Shown here: positions 7,783-9,993 of the stretch, piece by piece
Numbering within the stretch: the first letter of the stretch is position 1
Layout of the letters: each line of letters opens with the position of its first letter
From: a virus
Virus record (IMG/VR): IMGVR_UViG_3300028833_002847
Strand: one strand, 5' to 3'
Length of the DNA stretch: 29,340 nucleotides
Made by a program: the position numbers and the translations under genes
The notes under the pieces: model-generated
What the model was told of the DNA's origin: nothing
Database searches by the model: none
What the model saw: the letters and a program-made list of their open reading frames with translations, nothing else

Positions 7783-7971
7783 ATGTACGAAGAATATTAT
7801 GATGAGTTTGAAGAATTTGATTCTTTTAAAAAAATTTCTCATCAAGTTCCAAAAGGTTTTAAAGAAAATAAACGTTATAAATCAAACCAAGATAAATATA
7901 AGGCTCGTCGCAAGGCAAAAACCCGAGAGAAAAAAAGAATGATAGAAAATCAACAATCTTTTTATGAATAG
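7783..7971 (+). CDS. Small protein (62 aa) with an acidic N-terminus and a basic C-terminus
   Basis: YEEYYDEFEEFD followed by KARRKAKTREKKR. Confidence 0.4.
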   Translation: MYEEYYDEFEEFDSFKKISHQVPKGFKENKRYKSNQDKYKARRKAKTREKKRMIENQQSFYE

Positions 7972-7979
7972 AGGTTGTT

Positions 7980-8768
7980 ATGGAAAGTAGTATTAAAAAA
8001 AGAGTAAGTCAGCATTTGCGGGAAGCCATAGATAAAGATGCTGTAACAGAAAAAGGTTGGTTTATTATAGCTCCATATGGCTCTATGAATTATGGCTTAT
8101 ATGATTATGATAGTGATGTAGATAGTAAAATTATTAAAGTTCCTAATATGCGGGAAATCATAAGAAATATAGGTTCACGTGGAAGCTTGACCCGCACACT
8201 TAATTTTAATAATGAAAAAATAGAAGTTAAAGATATAAGAGAATTTTCTCGTATTCTTAAAACAGGTTCTATTAATTTTATGGAAATTTTATTTTCAGAC
8301 TATGTTCAAGTAAATTCTTTATATGAAGAAGAGTGGAATTTACTTTGTAGTAGAAGAGAAGCCTTAGCCCGCGCATATCCTGAAAATACACTATCTTCTT
8401 CTCTTGGAATGGCTAAAACAAAATATCATAATTTAGAGAAACAAGATTATAATAATTGTAATTTAAAAGATTTTATGACTCTTATGAGATTAGAATTTTT
8501 TGTAAAAAATTATCTTGAAAAAGTTCCTTATAAAAAATGTATTACTGTTGAAGATTTACCAAAAGTTCAAGAATTATGGCTAAAATTTAAACATCAAAAA
8601 ACAATAAGTGCTGAGGGTTTTAATCGTATTTTATCAGAAGCTCAATTAATTGTTTCTAAAATAGCAAATATGATAGAAAATAGTGATATGACAACTGATT
8701 ATTCTATGGATAATTTTATATATGATATTAATAATAAATTAATTTTAAAGAGAATTAAGGAGACTTAA
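7980..8768 (+). CDS. Pol-beta-superfamily nucleotidyltransferase (262 aa)
   Basis: Minimal nucleotidyltransferase signature hG[GS]x9-13DhD: FIIAPYGSMNYGLYDYDSDVDSKII. Confidence 0.55.
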   Translation: MESSIKKRVSQHLREAIDKDAVTEKGWFIIAPYGSMNYGLYDYDSDVDSKIIKVPNMREIIRNIGSRGSLTRTLNFNNEKIEVKDIREFSRILKTGSINFMEILFSDYVQVNSLYEEEWNLLCSRREALARAYPENTLSSSLGMAKTKYHNLEKQDYNNCNLKDFMTLMRLEFFVKNYLEKVPYKKCITVEDLPKVQELWLKFKHQKTISAEGFNRILSEAQLIVSKIANMIENSDMTTDYSMDNFIYDINNKLILKRIKET

Positions 8769-9209
8769 GTGAAAAATCAAATTCTAAAAGATTTTTGGGA
8801 TGCAGAAAATGGAATTTGTGAACTAGTTGTACTAAATAAATGGGGAAAATTTTCCGCTAAAACAATTTGTTCAAAAGAAGATAAAGATGTTCTTAGTTAT
8901 TGGACTGGAATTCATCTTTGTGAATATAAAATTTTAATTAAAACTCTTCAAGCAAAAGCTTTAGCATTTGATCAGCGAGTTATTGGTATCAAACATGCTA
9001 TTAATGTTTTACAAAATATTGATTCTCAAGCTAAATGGTGTGCAAAAACAAATGGAGATAGCTATTTTAATCTTTGGTGCTGTGTAGAAGCTACTGAACT
9101 AGAAGCTAAAAAAATTCGTGCTAAAATCAAAGAACTTAAAGAAGGTTATCCTGTTTATGCAGAGCATTTAATTAATTCTAAGAGAGAAATCTCAAATAAA
9201 AATTATTAA
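8769..9209 (+). CDS. Hypothetical protein (146 aa), possibly HEPN-like
   Basis: GTG start immediately after the upstream TAA. Contains an Rx5H stretch (QRVIGIKH) that matches the HEPN Rx4-6H pattern, which is weak evidence. Confidence 0.35.
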   Translation: MKNQILKDFWDAENGICELVVLNKWGKFSAKTICSKEDKDVLSYWTGIHLCEYKILIKTLQAKALAFDQRVIGIKHAINVLQNIDSQAKWCAKTNGDSYFNLWCCVEATELEAKKIRAKIKELKEGYPVYAEHLINSKREISNKNY

Positions 9210-9222
9210 AAAGGAGTTTGAA

Positions 9223-9993
9223 ATGAGTGGTCGTATTTTTGTAGTAGCTGATATTCATGGTTCTGCGGCCGTAGTTAAAAATATTATTTCTTTAATTGGT
9301 AATCCAACATCAGATGATATTATTATTGTTGCTGGAGATGCTGGTTTTGAGTATGGTAAACATGTTATGGGTTCTGCAAAAAGGGCTGCTCATAAATTTG
9401 TTGGTAAATGGATTGTTATGAGGGGTAATCATGACAATTGTTATCAAGACAATCATGCTCATTGGAATAAAGAAAAACAAAATTATGATTTAGATACTGG
9501 ATGGTCTTGGGCAGAAGATGGATATTCTTTATATCAAAATAGATATCCTAATATTTTATATATTCCTGATAGTGGAGGAATTTTAAAAATTAAAGATTTT
9601 AATTTTCTCTTTTGTCCAGGAGCTTATTCTGTAGATAAGATGTATCGTTTAAGAATGGATTATCCTTATAATTCTAATGAACAACTATCTATAGAAGATA
9701 TGAATAAACTAATTGATATTGTTAAAGACTGGAATAAAAATGGTTTCGATATTGATTATGTAATTGGACATACTTTCCCACTTTATTTAGAACGTTATTA
9801 TCGTGATTTATTTATGTCTAGTATTTCTCAAACTTCCGTAGATAAAACTACAGAAAAGTGGTTAAATATTATTAGTGAAGAATATGAAAGAAATCCCGCT
9901 TTCAAACAATATTATGGTGGACATTTTCATGATTCTCGCATTCTAGATGATAAATATACTATGGTTTATCAAACTCCAATTCAAATTGTTTAA
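9223..9993 (+). CDS. Second calcineurin-like metallophosphoesterase (256 aa)
   Basis: Motifs ADIHGS, AGDAGFEYG, MRGNHDN, GHTFP, GGHFHD. Confidence 0.7.
   Translation: MSGRIFVVADIHGSAAVVKNIISLIGNPTSDDIIIVAGDAGFEYGKHVMGSAKRAAHKFVGKWIVMRGNHDNCYQDNHAHWNKEKQNYDLDTGWSWAEDGYSLYQNRYPNILYIPDSGGILKIKDFNFLFCPGAYSVDKMYRLRMDYPYNSNEQLSIEDMNKLIDIVKDWNKNGFDIDYVIGHTFPLYLERYYRDLFMSSISQTSVDKTTEKWLNIISEEYERNPAFKQYYGGHFHDSRILDDKYTMVYQTPIQIV

Follow-up and report, generated by a model that had tools for sequence, protein, structure and literature searches.

The locus described here is a compact cassette of four genes at positions 7783–9993 of a viral DNA stretch of 29,340 nucleotides (IMG/VR record IMGVR_UViG_3300028833_002847), which was analysed whole and is called the window below. 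The window contains about 28% GC and carries nearly every gene on the plus strand, among them the four open reading frames (ORFs) of the cassette, whose boundaries in a first-pass annotation match the ORF listing exactly. ORF1 (7783–7971, 62 amino acids) has an acidic and aromatic head and a basic tail; ORF2 (7980–8768, 262 amino acids) is a polymerase-beta-type nucleotidyltransferase (NTase) of the RlaP family (PF10127); ORF3 (8769–9209, 146 amino acids, GTG start) is a member of an undescribed family, predicted to be a non-catalytic accessory or adaptor subunit; and ORF4 (9223–9993, 256 amino acids) is a stand-alone calcineurin-like binuclear metallophosphoesterase (MPE). The tight coupling of these genes proposed at first pass was borne out at the ORF2/ORF3 junction, where the TAA stop (8766–8768) is followed directly by the GTG (8769) and a ribosome-binding site (AAGGAG) lies within the 3' end of ORF2, but the overlaps that had also been proposed do not exist, the three gaps measuring 8, 0 and 13 nucleotides. 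An AGAGG sequence straddles the ORF1 stop, and another AAGGAG lies inside the gap between ORF3 and ORF4. Downstream of ORF4, a hairpin followed by a T-run resembling an intrinsic terminator (10005–10036, plus strand) directly precedes a sigma-70 promoter for gyrB that matches the consensus at 12 of 12 positions (10043–10072); the transcription unit therefore stops at ORF4 and gyrB begins a new one. Upstream, a Zn-ribbon-like protein of 63 amino acids with a CxxC...CxxxxC pattern (7339–7530, plus strand) is separated from ORF1 by a spacer of 252 nucleotides (7531–7782), in which a 14-nucleotide motif, TATGCAAAAGCTAG, occupies positions 7556–7569 on the plus strand.

The only Pfam match of ORF2 was to RlaP (26.0 bits against a cut-off of 23, E = 8.9e-6), and among the PHROGs it matched a nucleotidyltransferase family (phrog_388, 1.5e-12). 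A word-indexed homology search yielded two relatives of ORF2, and all seven relatives that were aligned (24–92% identical) matched RlaP themselves, the best at 4e-11. The catalytic signature is kept, with G34, S35, D46 and D48 (GS at 34–35, DSDVD at 44–48) invariant in the seven relatives and an acidic residue at position 85 (D in five, E in two). The crystal structure of PfRlaP consists of an N-terminal NTase domain and a C-terminal helical domain, an organization with which the length of ORF2 is compatible; a profile search with ORF2 returned no RlaP chain among the sequences of solved structures at E ≤ 1. ORF2 had been described as a minimal nucleotidyltransferase with GS and DSDVD motifs, and this holds for the polymerase-beta type and for both motifs, though not for the size. 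A minimal MNT enzyme was ruled out, as ORF2 has 262 residues against about 100–140 for the single MNT domain, its family profile reached the MNT antitoxin chain 5yep at E = 0.19 through the core motif only, and its partner is not a HEPN protein. A CD-NTase or SMODS enzyme was also ruled out, RlaP being the sole Pfam match and no NTase of a defence system in PADLOC being found at E ≤ 1. According to published biochemical work, RlaP enzymes add one or two nucleoside monophosphates to RNA 3'-OH ends with a preference for damaged RNA, NrdC.11 of phage T4 belongs to the family, and the biochemistry is limited to Pseudomonas enzymes (PMC12776372). ORF2 is predicted to add one or two nucleoside monophosphates to RNA 3'-OH ends. 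Among deposited phage genomes, the nearest RlaP-like gene (locus L014, 5983–6807, 28% identical) is that of Phage Phass-1 (OQ749652.1), a gut phage of the "code 15 clade", where it is annotated as hypothetical and adjoins a run of tRNA genes.

ORF4 matched Metallophos (PF00149) with 51.8 bits, against a cut-off of 21.5, and E = 1.8e-13, in agreement with its first-pass assignment as a calcineurin-like phosphoesterase. It also matched phrog_1649 and, weakly, a NinI-like PHROG; searches of Pfam, PHROG and NCBIfam gave Metallophos families only, with no match to a 2H or metallo-beta-lactamase fold. The complete set of metal-ligand motifs (DxH, GD, GNH[DE], H and GHxH, with invariance judged across relatives 35–50% identical) is intact, comprising D10, H12, G38-D39, G68-N69-H70-D71, H183 and G233-H234-x-H236, and with all metal ligands kept the enzyme looks active as far as its sequence goes. 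A profile search yielded 433 homologues, of which the best 120 are all stand-alone proteins of about 240–275 residues. The best solved relative by sequence was the lambda protein phosphatase (1g5b, E = 0.02), and PADLOC gave a weak, unrelated match to PDC-S10 (E = 0.0013, 16 bits). A role as RNA-end phosphatase has been noted for the calcineurin-like phosphatases of some jumbo phages (PMC7824862). ORF4 is predicted to strip a 3'-terminal phosphate or cyclic phosphate from RNA.

No match to ORF3 was found in Pfam, PHROGs, NCBIfam or PADLOC, and tblastn against phages returned none either. The relatives found by word-indexed search were all at least 88% identical; an exhaustive HMMER search yielded 89 cluster representatives of the family, nearly all of about 120–175 residues. 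In an alignment of 62 members two residues (G26 and D38) never vary and three (G47, R70 and G73) hardly do, with conservation concentrated in an N-terminal beta-domain and at the base of a helical hairpin, the tip of which varies in length. The AlphaFold model built from this alignment reached a predicted local distance difference test score (pLDDT) of 95 and a predicted template modelling score of 0.86, and shows three beta-strands (residues 4–33), a short helix and a long antiparallel helical hairpin (44–87 and 96–145); an earlier AlphaFold2 model from five near-identical sequences, with a pLDDT of 55, was discarded. The 62 members have no Pfam or PHROG family in common, and no HEPN family is among their Pfam matches. 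The Rx5H string that had been likened to a HEPN ribonuclease motif is indeed present (R70-x5-H76), but the HEPN identity was not upheld by fold or conservation: R70 is kept in 59 of 62 members, whereas at position 76 just 21 of the 62 have H, with N in 10, Q in 9 and other residues in the rest. Because of the database nulls, this poorly kept histidine and a model with a beta-sheet and a helical hairpin instead of an all-alpha bundle, a HEPN ribonuclease was ruled out. Apart from the matches given here, single-sequence and profile searches of solved structures with ORF2, ORF3 and ORF4 returned spurious repeat or coiled-coil matches.

ORF1 likewise had no match in Pfam, PHROG, NCBIfam or PADLOC. 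Its computed charge is −7 over residues 1–14 and +14 over residues 15–53 (isoelectric point 9.45), so the acidic head and basic tail noticed at first pass are real. With an acidic stretch of only about 14 residues in a protein that is net basic, the sequence makes a weak case for a DNA mimic, and that role was set aside. ORF1 also contains an SF[EK]KI motif. In distant relatives (L007, L008, L011, L019 and L020) the cassette is preceded by homologues with the same layout of acidic and aromatic head and basic tail, in which the motif takes the form SF[EK]K[IFL]; ORF1 is the founding member of this ORF1-like family, which is absent from the databases. Homologues of the Zn-ribbon gene lie upstream of the ORF1-like gene in L007, L008, L011, L019, L020, L024 and L029; this conserved neighbour is linked to the cassette by association only.

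Co-variation of the cassette genes was assessed by scanning the neighbourhoods of distant homologues of the ORF3 family and of the phosphoesterase in six frames with hidden Markov models built from the family alignments. The 85 related loci (the L-numbers are their labels) fell into 31 phosphoesterase lineages at 75% identity, and counts were made on the 15 lineages in which both flanks extend for 1.5 kb or more. An ORF3-family gene was found on the same strand within 2.5 kb of the phosphoesterase in 13 of the 15 lineages, an ORF1-like gene in 12, the Zn-ribbon gene upstream in nine, and either RlaP or an Rnl-type RNA ligase in 12 (six each). In the six Rnl lineages the ligase adjoins the ORF3–phosphoesterase core and no RlaP is adjacent. 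A TROVE/Ro gene lies within about 3–5 kb of the ORF1–ORF3–phosphoesterase core in five of the 15. The full set of four genes reappears as a group even where the proteins of relatives share just 23–58% identity, and because of this joint recurrence the cassette is more than a chance association. The four genes are a real, evolutionarily linked unit, and the functionally linked accessory cassette suggested by the first-pass annotation, for which it had proposed a co-occurrence analysis, co-varies across the 31 phosphoesterase lineages.

Gene order varies between lineages while adjacency is maintained. The order is ORF1-RlaP-ORF3-MPE in the window, ORF1-RlaP-MPE-ORF3 in L007 and L011, and RlaP-MPE-small gene-ORF3 in L019 and L029; it is ORF1-MPE-ORF3-Rnl, with TROVE farther on, in L020, L124, L128, L129, L138 and L139, and ORF1-ORF3-MPE, with Rnl and TROVE upstream on the opposite strand, in L025–L028 and L151–L159. 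In some lineages the block is separated from gyrase and sits beside Rnl and TROVE, and in a divergent phosphoesterase clade (29–33% identity) RlaP lies directly upstream and there is no ORF3-family member. The only lineage with the cassette minus its phosphoesterase (L008/L009) has RtcB 2.5 kb upstream, at 2.5 kb from RlaP in L008; RtcB requires a 3'-phosphate, not a 3'-OH. A search for relatives of RtcB in viral contigs found none. The small gene between the phosphoesterase and the ORF3-family gene is itself conserved (61–66 amino acids; L012 1270–1455, L019 6767–6967) and is absent from the window.

Several RNA features adjoin the cassette and its relatives. In at least eight lineages each locus holds a single copy of the 14-nucleotide motif, TATGCWAAAGCTAG, always in this orientation and in the interval from the Zn-ribbon gene to the ORF1-like gene. 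In six of them, which are GC-richer, the motif is the strand left unpaired in a stem around a variable hairpin (L020 5536–5581; L109 1886–1931; L092 6528–6569; L019 2785–2826; L085 88–140, minus strand; L024 4719–4761). The alignment of these stems, limited to six sequences and adjusted to fit the model, has 98% of its cells paired and compensatory changes in 9 of 11 pairs, values that none of 500 shuffles reached. Covariance models detected the six relatives and only marginally the copy in the window (12.8 bits, E = 0.84), where the motif is kept and the outer stem is not; the minimum free energy z-score of the window spacer is −0.67, and MAFFT alignments of the spacer did not bring the stems into register. 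An exact 16-mer search of IMG/VR gave 87 matches, seven of them in the context of the module, and the remainder were judged to be due to chance. The motif matches no Rfam family, and an Rfam scan of the window found no match, including no Y RNA and no ROOL RNA. In two lineages the motif directly follows a ROOL RNA (RF03087, 288 and 333 bits; L109 1293–1861, plus strand; L085 154–770, minus strand). This RNA lies between the Zn-ribbon gene and the motif, just upstream of the RlaP/phosphoesterase/ORF3 module, and in L109 it is flanked by tRNAs. An array of 24 tRNAs lies just ahead of the start of the window, as seen in the identical relative L017 (827–6941; window coordinates equal L017 coordinates minus 7131).

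As the recurring partners of the cassette, namely RlaP, Rnl, RtcB and Ro/TROVE, are all proteins of RNA repair or RNA quality control, we lean, with guarded confidence, towards the cassette being a phage module for the end-healing and repair of RNA, most likely tRNA, that opposes host defences of the ribonuclease type. The RNA-centred context of the genome, with its tRNA array and SpoU methylase, and with ROOL and tRNAs in relatives, favours the same reading, and the array fits a phage that is heavily invested in tRNA supply. The reading is built on the family memberships, the intact catalytic motifs, the non-HEPN fold of ORF3 and the conserved linkage with RNA-repair genes, and from these we infer the substrates, the order of the steps and the roles of ORF1 and ORF3. 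A host ribotoxin would cut or trim an RNA, leaving a 3'-phosphate or 2',3'-cyclic phosphate and sometimes removing a nucleotide; ORF4 would take off the 3' blocking group to give a 3'-OH, on which ORF2 would restore one or two nucleotides. Sealing would follow through an Rnl-type ligase or RtcB in the relatives, while in this phage the examined region holds no sealing enzyme. ORF3, with its beta-domain and helical hairpin, and ORF1 would be non-catalytic partners, probably serving to bind the RNA, to hold it in place or to regulate the phosphoesterase. Because the cuts made by ribotoxins leave a 3'-phosphate or cyclic phosphate and both RlaP and Rnl need a 3'-OH, a phosphoesterase that makes 3'-OH ends would be the logical constant component of such a module. 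This need for a 3'-OH is common to RlaP and the 5'-phosphate RNA ligases (PMC12776372).

A bolder proposal, which we put forward only tentatively, is that the ORF1-like protein, the ORF3-family protein and the phosphoesterase form an undescribed three-protein complex for RNA-end processing, widespread in large gut and rumen phages of Bacillota. With a tRNA or some other structured RNA measured or held by the arm of ORF3, the phosphoesterase would remove a 3' block imposed by defence; the complex would fit interchangeably with the RlaP, Rnl and RtcB pathways, and it may act together with the conserved structured RNA element upstream and, in some phages, with ROOL as well.

Several observations weigh against an RNA end-healing function. 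The RlaP score of ORF2 is only 3 bits over the Pfam cut-off, and in the profile search of solved structures ORF4 did not specifically resemble any known phosphoesterase of RNA repair. In this lineage the approximately 47 kb examined, including about 13 kb upstream and 27 kb downstream of the cassette, yielded neither an RNA ligase or RtcB nor a polynucleotide kinase, and the sole ligase there is an ATP-dependent DNA ligase. The cassette is embedded in a block of nucleotide-metabolism and replication genes, with ThyX, a SpoU methylase, a second phosphoesterase, a dCMP deaminase and a SLOG/YAcAr protein upstream and GyrB, GyrA, DNA ligase, AAA_24, DnaB, primase, RecJ and Pol III alpha downstream. 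Moreover, the related loci all derive from large phages of a single broad group that share a similar gene order (dCMP deaminase, then the SLOG protein, the cassette and gyrase), and part of the co-occurrence may therefore be inherited synteny. If synteny were the whole explanation, the genes would serve DNA replication or nucleotide metabolism, with the phosphoesterase acting as a nucleotidase, a DNA-end nuclease or a protein phosphatase, the NTase acting on DNA ends, and ORF1 and ORF3 unrelated to them. The surroundings just listed, the protein phosphatase as best solved relative of ORF4 and its weak NinI-like match speak for such an explanation, and we give it a minor but appreciable chance of being right; it accounts poorly for an internal order that is shuffled while adjacency is kept, for the blocks that sit away from gyrase beside Rnl and TROVE, and for the reappearance of the RlaP–phosphoesterase pair in a distant clade without ORF3.

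That no ligase or kinase was found near the cassette in this lineage can also be accommodated within the RNA-repair theme, where the main alternative is a ligase-free module working on the tRNA 3' (CCA) end. The phosphoesterase would strip a blocking 3'-phosphate or pyrophosphate, for example one that defences of the toxSAS/CapRel type may add, RlaP would rebuild trimmed ends and the ORF3 arm would bind the tRNA. The tRNA array would suit this variant, as would the addition of just one or two nucleotides to 3'-OH ends by RlaP (PMC12776372). However, in six lineages an Rnl-type ligase adjoins the ORF3–phosphoesterase pair, which argues for the sealing of breaks and not for end trimming alone, and the likeness of ORF3 to a synthetase arm is generic for long helical hairpins, so that we regard this variant as doubtful. 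Much less credit is due to the two functions that the first-pass annotation had put forward. Cyclic-oligonucleotide signals made by the NTase or destroyed by the phosphoesterase, as in evasion of CBASS, Pycsar or type III CRISPR, are compatible in principle with the enzyme classes, but known anti-signalling enzymes have other folds (2H in Acb1, metallo-beta-lactamase in Apyc1) and ORF4 is a Metallophos protein only; with ORF2 an RlaP and not a CD-NTase or SMODS enzyme, no meaningful PADLOC match, and RNA ligases, RtcB, Ro/TROVE and tRNAs rather than signalling genes as recurring neighbours, this function is improbable, even though activity on cyclic-nucleotide signals has been predicted for calcineurin-like orthologues of T5 A1 (PMC7824862). 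A toxin–antitoxin or abortive-infection pair of an MNT-type NTase with a HEPN ribonuclease is hardly credible: the polymerase-beta GS...DxD core of ORF2, seen in the 5yep match, and a chance Rx5H string in ORF3 are all that the cassette has in common with such pairs, from which it differs in fold, size, conservation and neighbours, ORF2 being of two-domain size and PADLOC giving no match for ORF1–3. Both results that the first-pass annotation had named as refuting it, an NTase of another family and a non-HEPN fold for the 146-residue protein, were obtained. The broader suggestion of an uncharacterised counter-defence cassette stands, a counter-defence role being plausible.

Burroughs and Aravind are said to have described RNA repair operons containing RlaP in 2016. 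The cassette resembles such operons in that ORF2 belongs to PF10127 with the same catalytic carboxylates and relatives of the cassette lie beside RtcB or Rnl; it differs in that RlaP in the window has no RNA ligase nearby and its constant partners are a stand-alone metallophosphoesterase, an ORF1-like protein and an ORF3-family protein. One example of an RlaP operon is rtcB-rlaP-rtcA of Pseudomonas (PMC12776372). The portion of the RlaP literature available to us makes no mention of ORF1-like or ORF3-family proteins, or of RlaP or Rnl together with a stand-alone phosphoesterase. The ORF2 family and the ORF4 superfamily are already known; what is new, as far as that portion goes, is the arrangement, together with the two small families, neither of which is represented in Pfam, PHROGs, NCBIfam or PADLOC. 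With the bacterial Pnkp/Hen1 system and the T4 Pnkp/Rnl1 system of tRNA repair, the cassette shares the proposed logic of a phosphoesterase that heals the 3' end before restoration and sealing, and in Clostridium thermocellum the phosphoesterase domain used by Pnkp is likewise of the calcineurin-like type. Of the Pnkp-type components, however, only the phosphoesterase is present, as a separate protein with no specific RNA-repair match; no kinase was found, a ligase occurs in relatives only, and the cassette has neither a Hen1 methyltransferase nor a fused ligase, while it would add a nucleotide-restoring step through RlaP. The TROVE/Ro genes near the core and the adjoining structured RNAs (ROOL, tRNAs and the new motif) recall the Rsr(Ro)/Y RNA/RtcB operons, although the window itself has no TROVE gene and, by Rfam, no Y RNA.

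Many recently described anti-phage defences cut or block tRNAs, and RNA repair by phages is a counter-measure. The biochemistry of RlaP was reported only in late 2025 and, to our knowledge, few of its partners are known. The cassette offers candidates that can be tested in that role: a dedicated phosphoesterase that would yield the 3'-OH for RlaP or Rnl, and two conserved small proteins. In some phages ROOL and a new RNA motif with covarying pairs directly adjoin RNA-repair genes, which also provides a concrete context in which to test the function of ROOL.

The surroundings of the cassette yielded some further observations. A DNA similarity search of the window against 50,697 phage records gave no match. 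The SpoU-family 2'-O-methyltransferase gene (4515–5156) is followed directly by the gene of the second phosphoesterase (5107–5892), which belongs to another family (phrog_547, 4e-24), and the two may be a further RNA-modifying pair. One tRNA of the array, 96 nucleotides long and with a TCA anticodon, was classed as tRNA-SeC by ARAGORN and is a candidate suppressor of TGA. In-frame TGA codons were found at Trp positions in the genes for the SLOG/YAcAr-like protein, ThyX and, downstream, NrdD; in the window they lie at 6968–7336 (three, at 7112, 7178 and 7238), at 3725–4348 (five) and at about 27.6–29.3 kb, and most window genes have none. TGA codons within the cassette genes of relatives (L007 4269–4991 and 5001–5441; L012 1456–1899) align with TGG (Trp) in the window, a pattern of codons that suggests partial recoding of TGA to Trp in this phage group.

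The window also encodes, at 922–1698, a pilin-like protein of Gram-positive type with Cna-B/SpaA domains and an LPXTG anchor (about 602 amino acids in L017, 7021–8829), which points to a cell-walled Bacillota host; two contigs of metagenome-assembled genomes that carry the phosphoesterase are labelled Bacillota and Clostridium. In L008 (5462–8396), and also in L009 and L010, a GIY-YIG endonuclease gene splits gyrB into parts encoding 508 amino acids and a C-terminal 111 amino acids.

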